Source of the DNA: Xanthovirga aplysinae
GTDB taxonomy: Bacteria; Bacteroidota; Bacteroidia; Cytophagales; Cyclobacteriaceae
Assembly: GCF_009711365.1 (NCBI RefSeq)
Contig: NZ_SMMB01001185.1
Coordinates: forward strand, 1-10,602
DNA: 10,602 nucleotides
Direction of reading: 5' to 3'
Position 1 is the first letter of the stretch; each line of letters begins with the position of its first letter. Positions 494 to 10,459 of the stretch are shown piece after piece. The notes beneath the pieces are model-generated. The model was given only the letters and a program-made list of their open reading frames with translations. It searched no databases and had not been told where the DNA came from. A program made the translations under genes and the position numbers.

Positions 494-1126
494 ATGAGTG
501 AACTATTTTCGGCTTCTGTTTCTGTTGTCAATATTATTCCAACTACCTTGTTGGTTTTTATATTAATCTACTGGGTGACCGTCATTCTTGGAGTTTTGGA
601 CTTTAATTTTCTGGATTTTGACCTGGAGCTGGATTTGGAATTAGATGCAGAGGCAGATGGAGAAATATCCGTGGCCTGGCTAAATTCTGTATTAGCCTTT
701 TTTAACCTGGGTAAGGTGCCCTTTATGGTGTTTATGAGCTTTTTGGCCTTACCCTTATGGATTATTTCGGTGTTGAGTAACCATTTCCTAGGAAATACTT
801 CCATACTCATTGCTTTGCTCATATTATTGGCTGACTTTTTTATAAGTTTGTTTGTGGCAAAATTTCTGACCATGCCTTTGATTAAGCTTTTTGGAAAGAT
901 GGAGGAAGATACCGAAGGGGCTGTTACCGTGGTGGGAAAAATTTGTACAGTTTTGCTTCGGGTAGAGGATGGAAAATTAGGTCAGGCAAAAGTCAATCAT
1001 TCTGGTTCACCTATTTTGCTAAATGTACGATCTGCTAAAGGGGTATCATTGAAAAAGGGGGAGACTGGTCTGGTGATTGACTATCTTGAAAGTGAAAAAA
1101 TATATTTAATTGAACCATATAAATAA
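494..1126 (+). CDS. NfeD/YqiJ/YuaF-like membrane protein. N-terminal multi-TM region followed by a C-terminal OB-fold beta-barrel. Typical partner of SPFH/flotillin proteins
   Basis: 210-aa ORF with an ATG start. The N-terminal half holds 3-4 hydrophobic helices (IIPTTLLVFILIYWVTVILGVL; FMVFMSFLALPLWIISVL; ILIALLILLADFFISLFVA). The C-terminal ~70 aa are Gly/Val-rich and beta-strand-like (GAVTVVGKICTVLLRVEDGKLGQAKVNHSGSPILLNVRS...GETGLVIDY), typical of the NfeD short-form beta domain. The stop lies 7 nt before the flotillin ATG, the same arrangement as yqiJ-yqiK and yuaF-yuaG. Confidence 0.8.
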   Translation: MSELFSASVSVVNIIPTTLLVFILIYWVTVILGVLDFNFLDFDLELDLELDAEADGEISVAWLNSVLAFFNLGKVPFMVFMSFLALPLWIISVLSNHFLGNTSILIALLILLADFFISLFVAKFLTMPLIKLFGKMEEDTEGAVTVVGKICTVLLRVEDGKLGQAKVNHSGSPILLNVRSAKGVSLKKGETGLVIDYLESEKIYLIEPYK

Positions 1127-1133
1127 ATAGTAA

Positions 1134-3284
1134 ATGGATATACTAGAACAAACCATTGGGGCTGCTATTATCATAGGAGTAGTAGTATTGATCGGAATCA
1201 TTGCCCTTTTCATTAAAATGTATAAAAAGGCTGTTCAAGGGGAAGCCCTTGTAAAGACTGGGCTTGGAGGAACGAAGGTTGATTTTTCAGGAATGTTTGT
1301 AGTTCCGGTATTACATAAATTGGAAAAAATGGACATCACGTTAAAAACGATTGTCATTTCCAGAACGGGATCAGAAGGGTTAATTTGTAAAGACAACCTG
1401 AGAGCTGATATCAAAGTAACATTTTTCGTTCGTGTGAATAAAACCGAGGAGGATGTAAAAGACGTAGCTCAATCTATTGGTTGTTCCCGAGCTTCTGATC
1501 CTCAGCAGTTGGAACAATTGTTCGATGCCAAATTTTCCGAAGCTTTGAAAACTGTGGGTAAACGTTTCGATTTTGTTGAGCTTTATAATTCTCGCAACGA
1601 TTTTAAATTGGGGATTTTGGATATCATAGGTACAGACCTAAATGGGTATGTATTAGATGACTGTGCTATTGATTACCTTGAACAGACTCCTGTAGCCTCT
1701 CTGGATGCCAATAACATTCTGGATGCACAGGGGATAAAGAAAATCACTGAACTTACATCAAAAGAAAAGGTGGAGGCGAACCTGATTGAAAATGAGAAGG
1801 AAAAGACCATCAAGCAGCAGAATGTAGAAGCAAAGGAAACTTTGTTGCAGCTAGATAAACAATTGGCAGAAAATGAAGAAAAGCAGAGAAGGGAGATTGC
1901 TACGATTAAGTCTAGGGAGCAGGCAGAAATAGATAAAGTAGCACAGGAAGAACGTTTAAAAGCCGAACAGGCTCGTATTGCTACTGAGGAGGAAATTCAG
2001 GTCGCCGAACAAAACAAAGCGCGGCAAGTACTGGTAGCCGAAAAGAATAAGGAGAAAACCGATGCTATAGAGTCGGAGCGTGTAGACAAAGAGCGTTTGT
2101 TGGAGCAGACTGAGAAGGATAGAATTGTAGCCCTGGCACAGATTGAAAAGGAAAAGGCACTTGAAGAAGAACGCAAAAATATTCAGGATGTGATCCGGGA
2201 GAGAGTTGCCGTAGAAAAAGCAGTGGTGGAAGAAGAAGAAAAAATCAAGGAAACCAAAGCAATTGCGGAAGCGGACAGAAATAAGAAAGTTGCGATCACC
2301 AATGCTGAAAAAGAGGCAGAGGAAACCTTGGTGAAGGAAATCAAACTGGCTGAAGCTAAACGTCAGGCAGCAGAATTTAAGGCCAAGCAGCTATTGGTAG
2401 AATCGGAAGCGGAACAGGCATCTGCAGGACAAAGAGCCGAGGCTATTAAGATATTAGCTGAAGCAGAAGCGGCTAAGGAGGCAGCTTTGGGAATGTCAGA
2501 AGCTCAGGTAATGGAGGCCAAAGCGGCAGCACTGGAGAAAGAGGGTGATGCCCAGGCTCATGTTATTGAAGCAAAAGGAGAAGCGGAAGCAGCAGCCCTA
2601 AAGAATATGGGAGTTGCACAAGCAGAAGCTGATAAGAAAATTGGATTGGCCAATGCAGAGGTGATGGAGGCCACAGCCACGGCTGAGGAGAAAAAGGGTC
2701 TTGCTGGAACACGGGTAGAGGCTGAAAAATATACCGTGGAGGCCAAAGGAATTGCCGATAAGGCGGAAGCTATGAAACAGTTAGATAACGTTAGCCGTGA
2801 GCATGAGGAGTTTAGACTGCGTTTAGATACTCAAAAAGAAATTGAAATGGCCAAATTGGAAGTGGAACAACGATTGGCTGAGGCCCAGGCGGGAATCATG
2901 GCTGAGGCACTAAAAGCGGCTAAGATTGATATTGTAGGCGGTGAAAGTATGTTCTTCGATCAAATTACCAAAGCCATTACCAAAGGTAAAGCCATTGACC
3001 GGGCGGTTGACAATAGCAAAACCCTGGGGCAATTAAAAGATAATTTCTTCAATGGGAATGGAAATGGGGAGGTTTCCTCTTTTAAAGAAAACCTTCGGGC
3101 CTTTGTAGATCAGTTTGGTGTTTCCTCTGACGAACTGAAATCTCTGAGCATTTCTGCCTTGCTGTTAAAAATGAGTCAGCAGACATCTAATCAGCAAGTG
3201 CAACAAACAATTTCCGAAATGGAAAATATGGCTAAAACCATGGGAGTTTCTGATAAAACGCTGAAGGCGATCGGCTTGGCGTAA
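1134..3284 (+). CDS. Flotillin family SPFH/band-7 protein (YqiK/FloT-like) with a greatly extended Glu/Ala-rich coiled-coil region
   Basis: 716-aa ORF. It has an N-terminal TM helix (IGAAIIIGVVVLIGIIALFI), then motifs I recognise from E. coli YqiK and B. subtilis FloT: ALVKTGLGGTKV, GLICKDNLRADIKVTFFVRVNKTEEDVKDVAQSIG, QLEQLFDAKF. About 400 aa of E/A/K/Q-rich heptad-like sequence (flotillin EA repeats) follow, then a Gly/Asn-containing C-terminal tail. Confidence 0.9.
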   Translation: MDILEQTIGAAIIIGVVVLIGIIALFIKMYKKAVQGEALVKTGLGGTKVDFSGMFVVPVLHKLEKMDITLKTIVISRTGSEGLICKDNLRADIKVTFFVRVNKTEEDVKDVAQSIGCSRASDPQQLEQLFDAKFSEALKTVGKRFDFVELYNSRNDFKLGILDIIGTDLNGYVLDDCAIDYLEQTPVASLDANNILDAQGIKKITELTSKEKVEANLIENEKEKTIKQQNVEAKETLLQLDKQLAENEEKQRREIATIKSREQAEIDKVAQEERLKAEQARIATEEEIQVAEQNKARQVLVAEKNKEKTDAIESERVDKERLLEQTEKDRIVALAQIEKEKALEEERKNIQDVIRERVAVEKAVVEEEEKIKETKAIAEADRNKKVAITNAEKEAEETLVKEIKLAEAKRQAAEFKAKQLLVESEAEQASAGQRAEAIKILAEAEAAKEAALGMSEAQVMEAKAAALEKEGDAQAHVIEAKGEAEAAALKNMGVAQAEADKKIGLANAEVMEATATAEEKKGLAGTRVEAEKYTVEAKGIADKAEAMKQLDNVSREHEEFRLRLDTQKEIEMAKLEVEQRLAEAQAGIMAEALKAAKIDIVGGESMFFDQITKAITKGKAIDRAVDNSKTLGQLKDNFFNGNGNGEVSSFKENLRAFVDQFGVSSDELKSLSISALLLKMSQQTSNQQVQQTISEMENMAKTMGVSDKTLKAIGLA
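2400..2780 (+). repeat. Densest Glu-Ala (EA) repeat block, low complexity, within the flotillin coiled coil (the coiled coil as a whole spans ~1750-2940)
   Basis: The translation reads ...EAEQASAGQRAEAIKILAEAEAAKEAALGMSEAQVMEAKAAALEKEGDAQAHVIEAKGEAEAAALKNMGVAQAEADKK...VEAKGIADKAEAMKQ, with recurring h-EAK/EAEAA units. The GC-rich GCN/GAR codon run also creates the spurious minus-strand ORF 2558-2746. Confidence 0.55.
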
Positions 3285-3306
3285 GATCAGATTGGAATTT
3301 CTTCCT

Positions 3307-3330
3307 AGAGACAAGGCATGCCTTGTCTCT
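3307..3330 (+). terminator. Perfect 24-bp palindrome (AGAGACAAGG-CATG-CCTTGTCTCT) 22 nt after the flotillin stop. Intrinsic terminator, attenuator or processing hairpin, or alternatively a protein-binding site
   Basis: Read directly: 3307-3330 is its own reverse complement. As RNA it gives a 10-bp stem (5 G:C pairs) with a CAUG tetraloop. There is no U-tract after it, which is common for Bacteroidota terminators but lowers confidence. Confidence 0.4.
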
Positions 3331-3369
3331 GCACCCATCAAAATTGTTTCTACAAGAAAAGGGAAACAT

Positions 3370-3786
3370 ATGAAGCAGGTATTTCAATTGAAGAAAGGGG
3401 AGATTACAATAAATGACGAGGAAATTATTATAAATGACCAAGCCGAAAGAGAAAACCGGAGGTGGCTTTTTAGTTCGGGCATATGGACAATTTATGGAAT
3501 AGCCTCTGTTGGAAGATATTTTACGACCGGGGACCAGTTTTTACTTTGGTCAGGATTATTGATAGGGATCCTTCATTGTATAAATTTCATCATTAGAATA
3601 ATTTTTAGATCAACCACAAGGCAAATAAAACTCCAGGAAATTGATTACATAAAAATTAAACAGAGGTTCAATAATAGGTTTCTTGAAATAAAACTTTTAG
3701 GAAATAAAGTAAGAAGGATCAATCAAATTCAGGATATAGAAGAAGACCTTAAGCCTTATTTGGGAAGATACTCCAAATCTAAATAG
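3370..3786 (+). CDS. Hypothetical small membrane protein, 138 aa. Short acidic N-terminus, two adjacent TM helices, then a charged beta-strand-like C-terminus
   Basis: The ORF-track frame 3292-3786 begins inside the 24-bp palindrome, so I use the in-frame ATG at 3370 (MKQVFQLKKGEITINDEEIIINDQ...). Hydrophobic segments are WLFSSGIWTIYGIASVG and FLLWSGLLIGILHCINFIIRIIF. The C-terminus has alternating I/L/V residues (IDYIKIKQRFNNRFLEIKLLGNKVRRI). No family recognised. Confidence 0.5.
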   Translation: MKQVFQLKKGEITINDEEIIINDQAERENRRWLFSSGIWTIYGIASVGRYFTTGDQFLLWSGLLIGILHCINFIIRIIFRSTTRQIKLQEIDYIKIKQRFNNRFLEIKLLGNKVRRINQIQDIEEDLKPYLGRYSKSK

Positions 3787-3799
3787 GCATTCATCAACT

Positions 3800-3821
3800 A
3801 AAAGGAGAATATTCCTTTTTT
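3800..3821 (+). terminator. Weak terminator-like hairpin (AAAAGGA-gaatat-TCCTTTT) followed by extra T residues
   Basis: 7-bp stem that is mostly A:U, a 6-nt loop and a T-run, 14 nt after the 3786 stop. Low predicted stability. Confidence 0.2.
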
Positions 3822-3904
3822 ACTAGCAAGAGAAACCTGGGGTATTTTCCTGATTTTGTCCGAGCTGAAGACTTAAAATTAATTTTTGACTAAAATCCTA
3901 TAGT

Positions 3905-4822
3905 ATGGAAAAAGAAATAAAATTAAAAAATAACGGTTTTTTTTACCTTTTTGTCCATCTAATATTTTTGTTTTCTCCCTTTCTTTTGATTTCCATTAGA
4001 GATGGCTGGGTGATTGCTGGGACACTCTTTTTATCCTTTTATGCTCTCATTGGGCTCATCGGATTTTTTATCGTTCAACCAAATCAAACCAAAGTATTGG
4101 TGTTCTTTGGAAAATATAAAGGCACGGTGAAACAAAATGGATTTTTCTGGTTAAATCCATTCTATACGAAAAAGAAAGTCTCCCTACGAGTAAGAAATCT
4201 TGAAACGGATATTATAAAGGTGAATGATGAGCAGGGAAACCCTATCCTAATTAGTGCCGTGGTGGTATGGAAAGTGATTGATACTTATAAAGCTGTTTTC
4301 GACATTGAGGCAAAGGAAGAAGTAGATTCCAAATCGGGGATGAAGAAAGTAAAGGCAGAAGAATCCTACCAAAATTTTGTGAAAATTCAGGCCGAGGCTG
4401 CATTGCGAAGAATAGCCCATTCCTATCCCTATGATAATTTAGAAGAGGGGCAGGAAGATGGTATTAGCTTGCGATCTGGTGTAGATGAAATAAATAAATC
4501 CCTTGCCTCTGAAATAAAAGAAAGGTTGAAAATAGTGGGTATAGAAGTGATGGAAGCCCGAATATCCAACTTATCATATGCTCCTGAAATAGCAGCTATC
4601 ATGTTGCAAAGGCAACAGGCTCAGGCTATCATTTCGGCTCGAAAGAAGATAGTAAAAGGCTCTGTGGGAATGGTGGAAATGGCACTGCAGGAGTTGTCAG
4701 AAAAAGAGATTGTGAAATTGTCCCCCGAAAAGAAAGCTTCCATGGTAAGTAATTTAATGGTGGTCTTATGCTCTGATCAAGGCACCTCTCCTGTGGTGAA
4801 TACTGGAATTGATCATAGTTAG
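3905..4822 (+). CDS. SPFH/band-7 domain protein of the stomatin/HflC/prohibitin type; second SPFH paralogue in the locus
   Basis: 305-aa ORF with N-terminal hydrophobic segments FFYLFVHLIFLFSPFLLISI and WVIAGTLFLSFYALIGLIGFFIV. A canonical SPFH core follows: VQPNQTKVLVFFGKYKGTVKQNGFFWLNPFYTKKKVSLRVRNLETDIIKVNDEQGNPILISAVVVWKVIDTYKAVFDIE. A stomatin-like helical C-terminus closes it: LKIVGIEVMEARISNLSYAPEIAAIMLQRQQAQAIISARKKIV. Confidence 0.85.
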   Translation: MEKEIKLKNNGFFYLFVHLIFLFSPFLLISIRDGWVIAGTLFLSFYALIGLIGFFIVQPNQTKVLVFFGKYKGTVKQNGFFWLNPFYTKKKVSLRVRNLETDIIKVNDEQGNPILISAVVVWKVIDTYKAVFDIEAKEEVDSKSGMKKVKAEESYQNFVKIQAEAALRRIAHSYPYDNLEEGQEDGISLRSGVDEINKSLASEIKERLKIVGIEVMEARISNLSYAPEIAAIMLQRQQAQAIISARKKIVKGSVGMVEMALQELSEKEIVKLSPEKKASMVSNLMVVLCSDQGTSPVVNTGIDHS

Positions 4823-4932
4823 GGAATACGAAATGAAATATTGTTTTTAAGGAATAGGATGGTGAAATTTTAGTTAACTCCCTTTTTCTGAACCTTAATG
4901 ATAAATGGTTGGCCAGGATAAAAACCGAAATA

Positions 4933-5349
4933 ATGAATACTATCTATTTGGAAGAAAAGATCAAAAGTTTAAGCTGGCAAAAAGAGCCTTTTTTGACCAA
5001 ACTATTAACCAGTCGACTGAAATATATGCAAAATGCTGGGTTTGCTGCAAGTGGTTTGGGATTAACGCAAGATAGGTTAGAAGCCAGAATAAAAAGAGTA
5101 AAACGGATCATTATCTTTTCTTCTATCCTCTTGGGCCTAAAGCTTTTAGTAGTTGCATTTATTTTTTTGGGGCAGAACCTGATAACCACATATACCATTG
5201 AGACCGATATTCTGTCCCCAATATTTTGGGCAGCCATTTTCTATGGAATTCGGCTGGAAAACAAGCTAAAGCTAGCCTATTTAGAAGAAATTAAAATGCT
5301 TAGACACATGCTCAACCCTGGAGATGAAGCAGAGAATTCTTTGTCATGA
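4933..5349 (+). CDS. Hypothetical small membrane protein, 138 aa. Helical soluble N-terminus, then 1-2 TM helices
   Basis: The ORF track starts this frame at a TTG at 4909. The first in-frame ATG is at 4933 (MNTIYLEEKIKSLSWQ...). TM segments are IIIFSSILLGLKLLVVAFIFLG and ILSPIFWAAIFYGI. No family recognised. Same strand as the cluster and properly spaced within it. Confidence 0.5.
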   Translation: MNTIYLEEKIKSLSWQKEPFLTKLLTSRLKYMQNAGFAASGLGLTQDRLEARIKRVKRIIIFSSILLGLKLLVVAFIFLGQNLITTYTIETDILSPIFWAAIFYGIRLENKLKLAYLEEIKMLRHMLNPGDEAENSLS

Positions 5350-5450: not shown

Positions 5451-8400
5451 ATGAAAGACAAGGAAACATTAGATAGATCAGTAGAATCCTCAGAGAAAAC
5501 TCAGTTGGAAAGTGGTACCTATGAAATCCTGCAAAATAGATTACAAAATAGCGGGCATGAATTAAGAAGCCGTTTGGAGCAGTTGAATGAAACCCGAAAG
5601 GAAGTTTTCGGATCAATAGAAACCAATCTGATTGCCACAGAGCGAGTGAATACAGAAAATAATTGCGTTTCTCGTGATATGGTGCCTTTGGGCGATCAGT
5701 TTATTTTTGGCTACAATGTTTTTATTGGCCTTAAAACTGAGACTAAGTTATCTGATGTTTTCAGTATTTACACCTATGAAGACCATAGTTTTCATCAGGC
5801 TACCATGGGGCTAATTGCCGATGATCGTTTTGAAGACGATTTCAAAAAGCTCTATAAATACTATAGGGATAGTCGTTTCCGAAAATTCGTTAAAAAGGAG
5901 GGCTTCCTGTATATGGTTTTTAAGATAGGGAAAGCGGAAACCGACTTGAAGGCCTTTAAATGGCGTATTGAGGGGAAGAAGCTTATCTATGTGGATAACC
6001 GCAGTGAACATGAAGTAGTGTTTCCTGATCAGCATGAGTTTCAATGGATCAGAACAAAAAGAGAGCAATACAGAGAAGGGAAGCATCCCCACATTTCCAT
6101 AGAAGATAAAATTTTTGTTGAGACCCTGGGGGGAGGTTTGACCATCAAGGTGGAAGACAACACCGAGGATGGGCAGGGTATTTATGCCGAGGAGGTGGAG
6201 CACAAAGAGCAACGCCTCGAAGATGCTGAAATCTACTATGCCATTATTGGAAACCTTATCGCCTTGAAAATTCGCCCTTTTCGGGAGGATGACTTCCGTT
6301 ATATTGTGTATAATAGCAAGCAACAGGAGGCCCGTCGAGTTGATGCCTTGAAAGACTCTTGCGTGCTCTTACCTGCTGATCACGGGATTATTTTCTCCCA
6401 TGGGTATTACTTACAAACTGGAGAGTTCAAGCTTTTTGATAATCAACTGACAGAAATGCTTTTCGAAAGGCAGTTGGTTTCTCCAAATGGGGAAGACTTT
6501 CTCTATGTTTTTTATAATAGAGCAGAGGGGCTTTACTTGTTGTTGTCTTACAATTTGATTGCCCAAAAGGTAGATAAGCCGATTCTTTGTCACGGCTATG
6601 CCTTATTTGAGAATGGGGAGCTATGTTTCTTCCGTGACGATGAAACAGCTAAAAAGCACCATGCTCTTCAAATTTGGCAAACTCCCTATACGGGGCCAAA
6701 TTTTGAATTACCCAAACTCAATGATTCCTACCTTTATAAGGTAGGAAATAAGGAAATCGTTACCGCCATGGCGGAAGCCTACGAACTCCTTACTCTTTTG
6801 AATAAAGAAGATTCCTATGAAGGTTTATATTATGACCTGATAAAAGGTTCTACGGACCTTCTAGACTCATATTATTGGTTAGATAAGGAAGATGCGTTCT
6901 CCCTTAAGGAACCTTTGAAGCAATTATTAGATACGGCTACTTCAGCAGTAGATGAATTTGATAAAGTTAGCCAGATAAAGGCCAATACCCAGGAACAAAC
7001 ATTAATCACCTTTGGTAGGGCAGATGAACTTATTAAGAAAATCAATAGGCAGAAGATTACCCACATTAATGATTTTGTTGCTTTCATTTCGGATCTAAGA
7101 ACTATAAGAGGAGAGGTTATTTCTCTAAAGGATTTGAGATATGTGGTTCTTGAAACCGTAGAAGAGTATGAAGGGGCTTTAGAGGACTTGAATAAAAAAT
7201 TGTCTGCCGATTGTGTGCAATTTCTTTTAAAAGTTGAAGCCCTGGCTCCTTATAGGGATAATGTAAATGAATTAAAGGGGGAGGTAGAGGCTGTTGCCAA
7301 GGTTAGTCAGGGCCGTAAACTGCAGGAAGAAAATAATAAATTGGCCAAAGAGCTGGAAATGTTGATTGATATTGTGAGCAACCTGCAGCAGGACGATGCT
7401 ACAGAAACTACCCGGATATTAGACAGCATTTCGGCTATTTATGCCAACTTTAACCAGATAAAAGCCTCTTTAAAGCGAAAGTTGAAAGAGTTGCTTCTGG
7501 TAGAAGGAAAAGCAGAGTTCAATGCACAGTTAAAGCTTATCGATCAAGGGGTGGCTAACTATCTGGACCTTTGTGACCAACCGGAAAAATGTGATGAATA
7601 CCTCACCAAACTCATGGTCCAAATTGAGGAATTGGAAGGTAAATTCTCCGAATTCGATGAGTTTATAGAGCGCCTTTCTCAATTAAGGGAGGAGATCTAT
7701 AATGCTTTTGACTCTAGAAAACAATTCTTGCTTGAAGCTAGAAACAAAAGGGCGAATACTTTGCTCCAGGCTGCTGACCGTCTTTTAAGTGCAGTAAAAA
7801 GCCGGGTCAATCGCTTTAAATCTGCCAATGAGGTGAATGGCTATTTTGCCTCTGACTTAATGTTGGAGAAACTTAGGAGTATTGTCGAGGAGTTGCAGCA
7901 AATGGGAGACAATGTTAAGGCTGATGATATTCAAAGCCGAATGAAGTCTCTCAAGACAGAAACCCTCCGACAGTTGAAGGATAAAAATGAGTTGTTTACC
8001 GAAGGGGACAATCTGTTGAAATTTGGTGATTATCATTTTACCGTAAATACACAGGCCTTGGGGTTAACCATGGTTTATCGTGATAAAAAGATGAATTTTC
8101 ATCTGACGGGTACCAACTTTTTTGAAGAGGTAAAGGACGAGGCATTCCTTTCTTGTCAGGAGGTATGGGAGCAGACTCTGGTTTCAGAAAATCAGCAGGT
8201 TTATCGCTCAGAATATTTGGCTTTTCAGTTATACCAACGTGCGCAAAGTTCAACCAATGAAGAGGGTGCACTAAACCTTCATGATTTATATAAATTGAAC
8301 GAACAGGAATTGTTGGAGTATGTGCAAGGTTTTATGGCTATTCGTTACAACGAAGGCTATGTAAAAGGAGTGCACGATCAGGATGCTGCAAAAATCCTGA

Positions 8401-10187
8401 AGGCTTTGGTGTCCCTGAAAACTAAAGCCAGTTTGCTGTCTTATGATTCCCTGAATCGTTCGGTGGCGGCACTTTATTGGAGACTTTTTGCCAATGAATC
8501 TAGCAAAGGGTCATTCGAGCAGCAGTTAAAAGGGGTTTCTGCTATCTTGAAAGTTTTCCCGGACAGTAAAGAATTCGAGGACTTAAAGAAAAACTTGCAG
8601 CAGCAAATTAATGCTTTTGCCGAAACAACCGGTTTATTCCAATTGGAAGATATTACCCAGGCAGGGGAATATTTATTTTATGAGTTGTTGGAGGATAAAA
8701 GTTTGGTGGTGTCTAAAGAAGCACAGGAACTTTATCAATTGTTTGAAGCTCGTTTAAAAGCCAAACAAGCCTGGAAATCTTTTGAAGCTTCTTTGCAAGC
8801 AATCCAAGAATCTCCAGAGTTACGATTTATTCAATTAACCCGCTGGTTAAGGGCTTTCGTTCAACAGGAAGGTTGTTATCAATATGTTGATAATATATCA
8901 GAAACGGCGGCTATTTTTCTTACTGAGGGATTTGCCAAAGCTAGGAGAATTGAAACATCTTTGGGAATGTCAATGGAAAGCTTACAGGGAGATCATCGCT
9001 TAATAGCCGAAAATGGATATCAATTACACCTAACAAACTTTATAAAACGTCTGAATAATTTTTCTCAACATACGGTTCCTTTGTTCGAGCAATTTTCGGA
9101 ATTGAAAAAACAACTGATCCACAAGCAGGAAGAAGTTCTCCGTTTGAAGGAGTTTAAACCGAAGGTGATGTCCTCTTTTGTAAGGAATAAATTGATAGAT
9201 AAAGTATATCTTCCTTTGATTGGAGCTAATCTGGCCAAACAGATCGGGACAGGAGGAGAAAATAAACGTACCGACCTGATGGGGATGCTCCTATTAATCT
9301 CTCCTCCGGGTTATGGTAAAACTACCTTGATGGAATACATTGCCAACCGATTGGGGATCATTTTTATGAAAATAAACGGTCCGGCTATAGGTCATGAGGT
9401 GACGGCATTAGATCCTGCTGAGGCGCCAAATGCAGGGGCCAGACAGGAGCTTGAAAAGCTTAACCTTTCTTTTGAAATGGGGGATAACGTGATGATCTAC
9501 TTGGATGATATACAGCATTGTAATCCTGAGTTTTTGCAAAAATTTATTTCTCTTTGTGATGCCCAGCGAAAGATTGAAGGGGTTTACAAGGGCAAAAGCA
9601 AAACCTATGACTTTCGTGGTAAGAAGGTTTGTGTGGTGATGGCCGGAAATCCTTACACAGAAAGTGGGGATAAATTCCAGATTCCTGATATGTTAGCTAA
9701 CCGGGCAGATATCTACAACTTGGGAGATGTGATAGGGGATGCTGAAGAAGTCTTCAAACTGAGTTATATTGAAAACTGTCTTACCTCTCATCCTCTGATG
9801 AACAAACTGGCATCAAAAAGCTTCAAAGACGTGCATGCCATTCTACGGCTCGCTGAAACAGGACAGCAGGAAGGGCTGGAATTTGAAGCGAAGCATTCGG
9901 CAGAAGAGCTAAATGAGTACGTGGCCGTTTTGAAGAAACTTCTTAAAGTGAGGGATATTGTTTTGAAAGTAAATATGCAATATATCTATTCTGCCTCCCA
10001 AGCCGAGGAGTATAGAAAAGAGCCCCCTTTTAAACTGCAGGGTTCTTACCGAAATATGAATAAGATGGTCGAAAAAATTTCAGCCATCATGAATGAGAAG
10101 GAGTTAAAAAGTGTCATCCTTTCCCATTATGAGGGAGAGTCCCAGACCCTAACCAGCGGAGCTGGAAGCGAACCTTCTGAAATTTAA
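5451..10187 (+). CDS. Giant (1578 aa) multidomain protein: an N-terminal ~430-aa beta-rich domain of unknown function, ~800 aa of alpha-helix/coiled coil, and a C-terminal MoxR/AAA_5-class AAA+ ATPase domain
   Basis: A single uninterrupted ORF with an ATG start. The C-terminal region carries Walker A LLLISPPGYGKTTLMEYIANRLG, Walker B VMIYLDDIQH, sensor-1 VCVVMAGNPYTESG and IPDMLANRADIYNL, matching the MoxR/dynein-like AAA_5 arrangement. The middle region is rich in L/E/K/Q heptad-like sequence. The N-terminal region alternates hydrophobic and polar residues (beta-strand-like) and matches no motif I recognise. Confidence 0.88.
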   Translation: MKDKETLDRSVESSEKTQLESGTYEILQNRLQNSGHELRSRLEQLNETRKEVFGSIETNLIATERVNTENNCVSRDMVPLGDQFIFGYNVFIGLKTETKLSDVFSIYTYEDHSFHQATMGLIADDRFEDDFKKLYKYYRDSRFRKFVKKEGFLYMVFKIGKAETDLKAFKWRIEGKKLIYVDNRSEHEVVFPDQHEFQWIRTKREQYREGKHPHISIEDKIFVETLGGGLTIKVEDNTEDGQGIYAEEVEHKEQRLEDAEIYYAIIGNLIALKIRPFREDDFRYIVYNSKQQEARRVDALKDSCVLLPADHGIIFSHGYYLQTGEFKLFDNQLTEMLFERQLVSPNGEDFLYVFYNRAEGLYLLLSYNLIAQKVDKPILCHGYALFENGELCFFRDDETAKKHHALQIWQTPYTGPNFELPKLNDSYLYKVGNKEIVTAMAEAYELLTLLNKEDSYEGLYYDLIKGSTDLLDSYYWLDKEDAFSLKEPLKQLLDTATSAVDEFDKVSQIKANTQEQTLITFGRADELIKKINRQKITHINDFVAFISDLRTIRGEVISLKDLRYVVLETVEEYEGALEDLNKKLSADCVQFLLKVEALAPYRDNVNELKGEVEAVAKVSQGRKLQEENNKLAKELEMLIDIVSNLQQDDATETTRILDSISAIYANFNQIKASLKRKLKELLLVEGKAEFNAQLKLIDQGVANYLDLCDQPEKCDEYLTKLMVQIEELEGKFSEFDEFIERLSQLREEIYNAFDSRKQFLLEARNKRANTLLQAADRLLSAVKSRVNRFKSANEVNGYFASDLMLEKLRSIVEELQQMGDNVKADDIQSRMKSLKTETLRQLKDKNELFTEGDNLLKFGDYHFTVNTQALGLTMVYRDKKMNFHLTGTNFFEEVKDEAFLSCQEVWEQTLVSENQQVYRSEYLAFQLYQRAQSSTNEEGALNLHDLYKLNEQELLEYVQGFMAIRYNEGYVKGVHDQDAAKILKALVSLKTKASLLSYDSLNRSVAALYWRLFANESSKGSFEQQLKGVSAILKVFPDSKEFEDLKKNLQQQINAFAETTGLFQLEDITQAGEYLFYELLEDKSLVVSKEAQELYQLFEARLKAKQAWKSFEASLQAIQESPELRFIQLTRWLRAFVQQEGCYQYVDNISETAAIFLTEGFAKARRIETSLGMSMESLQGDHRLIAENGYQLHLTNFIKRLNNFSQHTVPLFEQFSELKKQLIHKQEEVLRLKEFKPKVMSSFVRNKLIDKVYLPLIGANLAKQIGTGGENKRTDLMGMLLLISPPGYGKTTLMEYIANRLGIIFMKINGPAIGHEVTALDPAEAPNAGARQELEKLNLSFEMGDNVMIYLDDIQHCNPEFLQKFISLCDAQRKIEGVYKGKSKTYDFRGKKVCVVMAGNPYTESGDKFQIPDMLANRADIYNLGDVIGDAEEVFKLSYIENCLTSHPLMNKLASKSFKDVHAILRLAETGQQEGLEFEAKHSAEELNEYVAVLKKLLKVRDIVLKVNMQYIYSASQAEEYRKEPPFKLQGSYRNMNKMVEKISAIMNEKELKSVILSHYEGESQTLTSGAGSEPSEI
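9240..9800 (+). other. AAA+ ATPase module (AAA_5/MoxR-like) inside the giant protein: Walker A about 9306-9329, Walker B DD at 9504-9509, sensor-1 AGNP at 9642-9653
   Basis: Motifs read directly from the translation. The spacing Walker A ... ~60 aa ... hhhhDD ... ~45 aa ... hhhAGNP ... L-x-NRAD is the MoxR/AAA_5 pattern (GPPGxGKT / hhhDE / ATxNP / LxDRF). Confidence 0.7.
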
Positions 10188-10203
10188 AGCGCTTTCCGGT
10201 TGG

Positions 10204-10389
10204 ATGAGTGAAGAAGAACAAGAACGTTGGGAGGAGATCAAGCAAACTTTCCAGAAGCATCAACAATTGAAAGGCCTAGGTGAAAATAATCAGATGGCGC
10301 AATTGGTGATGGAAATGCAATCGCTTAGTGATGGGTTGGAGGGTATTAAAAAGGCTATTGCCAAGGATGGGATAGTGGTAGAAGAATAG
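10204..10389 (+). CDS. Small acidic helical protein of 61 aa, probably co-transcribed with the giant ATPase gene
   Basis: ATG start 16 nt after the 10187 stop, same strand. Sequence MSEEEQERWEEIKQTFQKHQQLKGLGENNQMAQLVMEMQSLSDGLEGIKKAIAKDGIVVEE is E/K/Q-rich and predicted helical. A strong hairpin follows 42 nt downstream. The short length keeps confidence modest. Confidence 0.4.
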   Translation: MSEEEQERWEEIKQTFQKHQQLKGLGENNQMAQLVMEMQSLSDGLEGIKKAIAKDGIVVEE

Positions 10390-10431: not shown

Positions 10432-10459
10432 GTATAGCCAAGAAATGTATTGGCTATAC
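10432..10459 (+). terminator. Hairpin GTATAGCCAA-gaaatgta-TTGGCTATAC (10-bp stem, 8-nt loop) at the end of the gene cluster; candidate terminator
   Basis: Read directly: 10432-10441 is the exact reverse complement of 10450-10459. A T-run (TAGTTTTTTTAT, ~10410-10420) lies just upstream rather than downstream, so the geometry is not the classical intrinsic type. Confidence 0.35.

Follow-up and report, generated by a model that had tools for sequence, protein, structure and literature searches.

We analysed a complete contig of 10,602 nt from Xanthovirga aplysinae (Bacteroidota, order Cytophagales), referred to below as the window; all of its features discussed here lie on the + strand. A single open reading frame (ORF) at 5451..10187 encodes an ATPase of 1578 amino acids (aa) as called, in which a DUF3686 domain, predicted to be a beta-propeller, is followed by a helical region and a C-terminal AAA+ module, and which is truncated by a frameshift. 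Two genes with predicted membrane-scaffold products, a YqiJ/YuaF-type (NfeD-like) protein at 494-1126 and a flotillin-family protein at 1134-3284, lie upstream in the same order as in related loci, and the ATPase is the last gene of this conserved unit. We found that the 1578-aa product is 100% identical to an NCBI protein named 'DNA repair ATPase [Xanthovirga aplysinae]'. Thus, the ORF and its coordinates, as described in an earlier sequence-only reading of the window, are real.

Domain annotation assigned most of the landmarks of the protein. The Pfam family PF12458 (DUF3686, described as 'ATPase involved in DNA repair') matched aa 37-475 with E=1.9e-186, a score of 620.4 bits against a cut-off of 25, and covered profile positions 1-448 of 448. 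PF25472 (DUF7902) matched aa 596-680 (nt 7236-7490; E=2.6e-26, 92.1 bits), and the AAA (PF00004, 29.6 bits) and AAA_5 (PF07728, 25.2 bits) families both matched aa 1280-1403 weakly. Given the match to PF12458, the view that the N-terminal domain resembles nothing recognisable was mistaken. More than 100 proteins are full-length, collinear homologues with 57-63% identity over 98-100% of the query. When we scanned one genome per species, at least 588 relatives were found; the best 80 of these share 45-63% full-length identity across phyla and come from Bacteroidota, Planctomycetota, Verrucomicrobiota, Kiritimatiellota, Desulfobacterota, Clostridia and Chitinispirillaceae. The DUF3686 domain itself matches 761 clusters at 50% identity, in which full-length members have 1600-1930 aa. 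One homologue (P0096) is plasmid-borne. Judged by these sequence matches, the gene is an orthologue in a widespread bacterial family that combines DUF3686, DUF7902 and a C-terminal AAA+ module. The architecture is already known: Pfam and NCBI list the family, and Ravi et al. published its operon in 2024. The sequence-only reading had allowed that a profile search might assign the protein to a well-characterised family whose role is known; the family in which it was placed is catalogued and known in silico, yet experimentally uncharacterised.

The annotated stop codon does not mark the natural end of the protein. In homologues, the sequence ...HYE.E.QTLT.GA is followed by EANLLKFK...RWE.IK...G...L..I, giving ...SGAEANLLKFK... 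at the junction. Frame 0 of the window ends instead in ...TLTSGAGSEPSEI (...SGAGSEPSEI) and a stop codon, and translation in the +1 frame from nt 10165 gives EANLLKFKALSGWMSEEEQERWEEIKQTFQKHQQLKGLGENNQMAQLVMEMQSLSDGLEGIKKAIAKDGIVVEE (beginning EANLLKFK) up to its own stop. This +1-frame peptide (10165..10389, 74 aa plus stop) is 54% identical to residues 1575-1642 of the homologue P0003 (BLASTP, E=9e-23) and keeps every near-invariant column of the conserved C-terminal tail (E, A, N, L, K, R, W, I, G, L, I). Therefore, a single extra G at 10164..10165, where the window has GG and homologues imply a single G, shifts the reading frame and splits the gene. The corrected product of 1571+74 = 1645 aa falls within the 1633-1660 aa of full-length homologues. 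The supposed downstream gene for a 61-aa acidic protein (ORF 10204-10389) lies inside this tail and is thus a fragment of the ATPase. Because the tail is undecayed, the frameshift is most likely either a sequencing or assembly error or a very recent mutation. NCBI annotates the truncated 1578-aa product as intact.

We examined the domain anatomy in two AlphaFold2 (AF2) models, both built on 60-sequence alignments: one of aa 1-1200 (mean predicted local distance difference test score, pLDDT, 82.9) and one of aa 1101-1578 (mean pLDDT 74.6). Conservation was counted in 64 cross-phylum sequences from at least six phyla. After a long N-terminal helix (aa 21-53, 5511..5609, pLDDT ~90), the segment aa 59-410 (5625..6680), the core of DUF3686, folds in the model into ~27-28 beta-strands, in agreement with the beta-rich N-terminus that had been proposed. 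Given this number of strands, the predicted propeller probably has seven blades. The Foldseek matches of the domain in the PDB are beta-propellers as well: the Fbw7 WD40 domain, the clathrin N-terminal domain, CyRPA and prolyl oligopeptidase. Forty-four positions of the propeller are invariant, and its conserved face includes E224, T231, K233, E235, N237, N346-D349, H404 and W409.

The middle of the protein had been described as an ~800-aa coiled coil running from aa 430 to 1250. The region is indeed largely helical, but the models do not support one continuous rod. Long helices are confined to aa 427-846 (6729..7988, including DUF7902, with 39 invariant positions), where helices of 15-58 residues (486-533, 650-707, 736-786 and others) are separated by short loops; as modelled, these ~420 residues are long-helix hairpins or bundles. 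A home-made heptad score, too crude for more than a qualitative reading, reaches high values only in patches. The 400 or so residues that follow are mixed alpha/beta, so that the modelled extent of coiled coil is about half of that claimed. A five-stranded beta unit (aa 855-893) and a globular helical domain of short helices (aa 897-1157; mean column conservation 0.44) together occupy 8013..8921, and the unit 855-1157 is the least conserved part of the protein. Strands at aa 1172-1193 precede two long helices that lead to the motor (aa 1194-1265, 9030..9245) and carry the invariant motif F1243, R1245, N1246 ... G1258, N1260, K1263, Q1264. The proposed order of domains, a recognition domain, a helical spacer and a C-terminal motor, therefore agrees with the models even though the spacer is not a single rod.

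In a Foldseek search with the model of aa 1-1200, the longest alignments were to ROD (of the RZZ complex), clathrin heavy chain and IFT-A, in which a propeller is likewise followed by a helical region. With TM-scores of ~0.1-0.2 and identity of ~10%, and driven mainly by the propeller, this likeness is a resemblance only. In addition, ROD, clathrin heavy chain and IFT-A have no AAA+ domain, unlike the ATPase described here.

The alpha/beta core of the AAA+ module occupies aa 1266-1425 (9246..9725), as defined by Pfam, the AF2 model and conservation. It contains the sole P-loop of the protein, a Walker A motif SPPGYGKTT (1284-1292); a Walker B motif MIYLDD (1348-1353, window 9492-9509), which is invariant in the 64 sequences and has DD instead of DE; a sensor-1 residue, N1400 in MAGNPYTE; and a candidate arginine finger, R1418 in LANR. 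The motifs SPPGYGKT, DDIQH, MAGNPYTE and LANR are all present in the window protein and are invariant both in a separate 60-sequence alignment and in the 64 sequences, in which 75 of the 160 core positions do not vary. By these motifs, the motor is strongly constrained and looks catalytically intact. The core is followed by a helical lid and C-terminal domain (aa 1426-1571, 9726..10163; AF2, conservation). Within this domain, the invariant motif P1525-F-x-x-Q-G-S-Y-R1534 (here P-F-K-L-Q-G-S-Y-R, window 10023-10052) has a pLDDT below 50; it may be a sensor-2 or inter-subunit element, or one that binds a partner and becomes ordered only in the oligomer.

The module had been called a MoxR-class AAA+ domain. 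That it is a P-loop AAA+ module is confirmed by the Pfam AAA and AAA_5 matches, but membership of the MoxR class is not demonstrated, and the label is best regarded as a fair approximation. Two strands between alpha3 and the sensor-1 strand (1374-1379 and 1382-1387) form a pre-sensor-1 beta-hairpin in the model, which places the module among the hairpin-bearing AAA+ clades; since this hairpin is common to the RuvB, Clp, Lon and MCM clades, it is not specific to MoxR. The closest structures to the module are NorQ and CbbQ (MoxR-type, AAA_5), by a narrow margin: ClpA and dynein follow closely in the structural comparison, the fold is also near ClpB and Lon, and Foldseek did not favour MoxR. CbbQ and NorQ are stand-alone proteins of ~260-350 aa with an adjacent VWA/MIDAS partner (CbbO/NorD). 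They share the pre-sensor-1 hairpin with the module of the window, which in contrast makes up the last fifth of a 1645-aa protein, has SPFH/NfeD partners and shows no evident helix-2 insert; in the single AF2 model, the helix-2 region has no hairpin, and alpha2 is preceded by ~18 residues (aa 1310-1327) that form a conserved loop of irregular shape.

We considered whether the ATPase could nevertheless be a MoxR-type maturation chaperone whose VWA/MIDAS partner is encoded elsewhere, its linkage to flotillin being incidental. We regard this as improbable. No VWA protein is encoded in any ORF of the window, as the sequence-only reading had also found. Across 83 loci, comprising those of the 80 best relatives and three further ones, an unbiased clustering of all ORFs against all others likewise found no conserved VWA neighbour, and the absence of such a gene near the ATPase is therefore a trait of the family. 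The ATPase is also about five times the length of a MoxR protein, its own propeller could serve as an adaptor, and no Pfam AAA_3 (MoxR) match was listed for it. We expect the relevant partner of the ATPase to be flotillin/NfeD rather than a VWA protein.

A function in DNA repair, as an SMC/Rad50-like protein with a long coiled coil that acts on DNA, is suggested by the legacy names in Pfam and NCBI and by weak RuvB_N matches, which are confined to the P-loop. Our data argue strongly against this function, and we consider it very improbable. The ATPase has a contiguous C-terminal AAA+ module rather than a split ABC head, it lacks an N-terminal P-loop, and its N-terminus is a predicted beta-propeller. 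Searches of Pfam, NCBIfam and the PDB revealed no nuclease, DNA-binding, hinge or zinc-hook domain, and there were no SMC_N, AAA_23 or Rad50 matches. In NCBIfam, only sub-threshold RuvB and CDC48 matches to the P-loop were seen; sequence searches of the PDB, with the protein and with a 60-sequence profile, gave matches at the level of the P-loop and found no solved relative. A coiled-coil match to TEX12 in the PDB search was judged spurious. We also found no paper that supports the name, and no DNA-repair genes among the neighbours: the conserved partners are membrane proteins.

Among the 83 loci, 67 have at least 3 kb of upstream sequence and were informative for synteny. Of these, 64 carry a flotillin-like and 58 a YqiJ-like orthologue upstream of the ATPase gene and on its strand. 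Farther upstream, 22 of the 67 loci carry PspA and 21 a CesT/Tir-like gene, and the CesT-PspA dyad is thus optional; in many Bacteroidota, the unit follows this dyad and a divergent regulator gene. Apart from these four genes, the only recurrent neighbour in the all-against-all clustering was an S24 regulator. A gene for a cHTH plus Peptidase_S24 (LexA/CI-like) protein is divergent and directly upstream of CesT-PspA in 21 loci, nearly every dyad-bearing locus (for example, L001:798-1580(-) and L003:4867-5457(-)). It may be a regulator of the operon that links expression to RecA-type signals, and its position beside the extended operon makes induction by DNA damage conceivable, a point in favour of the DNA-repair function weighed above. 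In five loci (L001:15077-19203, L007, L023, L046, L079), the ATPase gene is directly followed by a module of DUF4178, unknown, DUF350 and spermine-synthase genes; this arrangement joins two operon classes that Ravi et al. kept separate.

This operon had already been reported by Ravi et al. (mSystems 2024; preprint 2020; PMC11237479), who found CesT/Tir-PspA combined with the three genes, proposed roles in sub-membrane dynamics, and noted the wider distribution of abbreviated operons that lack PspA. In their Table S3, the entry for Dokdonia donghaensis shows the gene order recovered here, including the divergent gene, which appears as 'cHTH+Protease' and is not discussed there. The window matches that system in domain architecture and gene order and, as far as the contig extends, corresponds to the abbreviated form, with flotillin, YqiJ/YuaF and the ATPase. 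It differs in a 2.2-kb insertion of three genes, among them one for a second SPFH protein, and in the 1-nt frameshift that detaches the tail.

The first gene of the triad (494..1126) encodes a 210-aa, multi-transmembrane YqiJ/YuaF-type protein with five hydrophobic segments. The window copy matches Pfam YqiJ_N weakly (E=0.18), whereas 8 of 25 orthologues match YqiJ_N (best 3.6e-8) and 1 of 25 matches NfeD; the family profile gave a marginal match (E=0.48) to the YuaF structure 2k14. The second gene (1134..3284) encodes a 716-aa, YqiK-like putative scaffold with one N-terminal transmembrane segment, a divergent SPFH domain and an A/E-rich coiled-coil region, named 'flotillin family protein' by NCBI and 'YqiK' by JGI. 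The window copy had no Pfam match. Band_7 was matched by 2 of 30 orthologues (2.1e-6); the family profile matched the SPFH protein QmcA in the PDB (E=1.3e-3), and phmmer gave a weak match to flotillin-2 (E=0.09). An hhalign comparison of this profile with the window's own Band_7 protein, described below, gave a weak match in register at the SPFH start (probability 4.7%) and was not used. The A/E-rich region of the gene contains an internal direct repeat (window 2490-2704), with an offset of 153 nt (51 codons) between the starts of its two copies, which are 71% identical at the DNA level over 62 nt. It was the only repeat in a scan of the window and is consistent with expansion of the coiled-coil segment by repeats.

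Between the flotillin and ATPase genes, the window carries a lineage-specific insertion (3292..5349) of three genes for predicted membrane proteins: orf164 (164 aa, 3292-3786), a second SPFH/Band_7 protein of 305 aa (3905-4822; Band_7 E=2.5e-24) and orf146 (146 aa, 4909-5349), each with a predicted transmembrane segment. In the 83 other loci, the sequence up to 10 kb from the ATPase gene contained no counterpart of these genes, and the gap between flotillin and ATPase is 2167 nt in the window compared with a median of 363 nt. Other Cytophagales carry different insertions at the same place, for example five genes in L001 and a gene for a PH_40 protein in L002. The flotillin-ATPase junction thus looks like an insertion hot spot.

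The synteny and conservation of the gene also bear on the suggestion, made in the sequence-only reading, that the ATPase might be a defence NTPase. Defence systems often employ large multidomain NTPases that carry repeat sensor domains, and an anti-phage or conflict NTPase, effector or sensor with a long helical spacer would have such a layout; the plasmid-borne homologue P0096 would also fit. However, none of the seven window proteins had a match in PADLOC-DB 2.0 at E<=0.01, and we therefore dropped this explanation, to which we give almost no weight. In addition, the linkage to housekeeping-type membrane-scaffold genes in 64 of 67 loci and the identity of 46-63% over the full length, across at least six phyla, are unlike the fast-evolving, patchy distribution of defence genes, and no nuclease or other effector domain was detected. 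The accompanying suggestion of a mechanochemical or scaffold ATPase fits the evidence.

We found no predicted transmembrane segment in the ATPase (maximum KD19 = 0.97), whereas all five upstream proteins of the window have transmembrane segments. From this, we infer that the ATPase is a soluble cytoplasmic protein of ~1645 aa after correction of the frameshift. Considering also its linkage to membrane-scaffold genes, we favour, with slightly better than even confidence, a function in which the ATPase acts from the cytoplasm and uses ATP to remodel membrane assemblies of flotillin and NfeD (and of PspA). In such a mechanism, the AAA+ modules would assemble into a cytoplasmic ring, probably a hexamer (an oligomeric state that we assume). 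The propellers, carried on the helical arms, would dock on the cytoplasmic flotillin/NfeD assembly and, where present, on PspA polymers, and the binding and hydrolysis of ATP would power the assembly, disassembly or turnover of scaffold oligomers during membrane maintenance or stress. By functional analogy, the ATPase might act as Vps4 does on ESCRT-III, or as in the pairing of FtsH with HflK/C.

Both analogies have limits. PspA and Vipp1 are bacterial homologues of ESCRT-III. As in the Vps4/CdvC-ESCRT-III systems, an AAA+ ATPase is here linked to a membrane-remodelling polymer, PspA, whose gene shares the operon in 22 of 67 loci; its role in ATP-driven polymer turnover, known for Vps4/CdvC, is for this ATPase only proposed. 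Unlike Vps4, the ATPase has no MIT match in Pfam, possesses a pre-sensor-1 hairpin and is far larger. It also differs from the classical AAA clade, as PF00004 matches it at profile positions 1-73 of 131 only and its PDB matches to p97/Vps4-class proteins cover only the P-loop. Finally, its linkage to flotillin is tighter than that to PspA. A 2025 review (PMC7619361) notes that a Vps4-like ATPase for PspA is apparently absent from bacteria.

The second analogy rests on the pairing of an SPFH-family scaffold with an AAA+ ATPase, as in FtsH-HflK/C and prohibitin-m-AAA. Partnerships of this kind, including SPFH cages that house AAA+ proteases, are well established. FtsH is membrane-anchored and has a protease domain, and the ATPase of the window has neither; similarly, the HflK/C cage is periplasmic, whereas a YqiK-type flotillin is expected to face the cytoplasm. 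This comparison raises a different explanation, in which the flotillin/NfeD cage serves as a platform from which a client-directed unfoldase, FtsH-like but without a fused protease, extracts or unfolds membrane clients. The synteny with flotillin and YqiJ fits an unfoldase equally well, the known cages offer a precedent, a propeller on a long arm would suit the capture of clients, and the AAA+ fold is near those of ClpA, ClpB and Lon. We nonetheless consider an unfoldase unlikely, at perhaps one chance in a handful: the protein has no protease domain and no conserved protease neighbour among the 83 loci, the conserved beta2-alpha2 loop shows no evident aromatic pore-loop motif, and the ATPase lacks a transmembrane anchor.

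Several observations weigh against the remodeller that we favour. Contact of the ATPase with flotillin, YqiJ or PspA is deduced from gene order only, and the flotillin assignment of the 716-aa neighbour comes from weak but consistent profile matches and source names. In the window, three extra genes part flotillin from the ATPase. Three of the 67 loci (L022, L025, L040) have no flotillin gene nearby; with at least 7.6 kb of upstream sequence, each has neither a flotillin nor a YqiJ homologue near the ATPase gene. Neither PspA nor CesT is visible in the window, because the contig ends upstream. In relatives, the gap between PspA and YqiJ is as short as ~70 nt, and the 493 non-coding nt that precede the YqiJ-like gene here indicate that PspA is not immediately adjacent. 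Within the motor, an aromatic pore loop is not evident between beta2 and alpha2, and the DD of Walker B might mean slow, switch-like hydrolysis instead of processive remodelling. A DD Walker B is known from DnaA, whose motif the DDIQH of the ATPase appears to resemble. Lastly, a literature search on DUF3686, PF12458 and 'DNA repair ATPase' with flotillin found no paper, and no experiment on any member of the family, and one on SPFH, NfeD and AAA+ found nothing relevant.

The first 493 nt of the contig (window 1-493), upstream of the YqiJ-like gene, are non-coding; they are AT-rich (31% guanine plus cytosine), have stops in all six frames and are probably the promoter region of the operon. Scans of the window returned 31 promoter-like sites for sigma-70 (23.3±5.3 in shuffled sequence) and 13 terminator-like sites for intrinsic terminators (9.5±3.1 in shuffled sequence). 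These counts are close to those of shuffled sequence and are uninformative about the structure of the operon. An Rfam scan of the window found nothing. A perfect 10-bp inverted repeat, GTATAGCCAA ... TTGGCTATAC, with an 8-nt loop and no T-run, lies at window 10432-10459, ~40 nt past the stop codon of the ATPase tail, and may form a hairpin at the end of the transcript. From the same stop codon, 213 nt remain to the end of the window.

The copy in the window adds no new principle beyond the 2024 publication, and the importance of these results lies with the family. The misleading name 'DNA repair ATPase' is attached to its members in thousands of genome annotations, and a better name is deserved. 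For a part in the dynamic assembly and disassembly of flotillin/SPFH microdomains and of PspA (ESCRT-III-like) polymers, the ATPase is an obvious candidate, because its motor is extremely conserved and its gene is almost always positioned right after those for flotillin and YqiJ. More tentatively, and with clearly less confidence than we place in the remodelling function as such, the family as a whole might be an ATP-driven remodeller of bacterial scaffold polymers, built as a hexameric, MoxR/dynein-like ring with six propeller-tipped helical arms that act on flotillin/NfeD and PspA. If this is true, the family would be a bacterial functional analogue of Vps4 that is assembled from unrelated parts and employs a clathrin-like propeller-plus-helical module.

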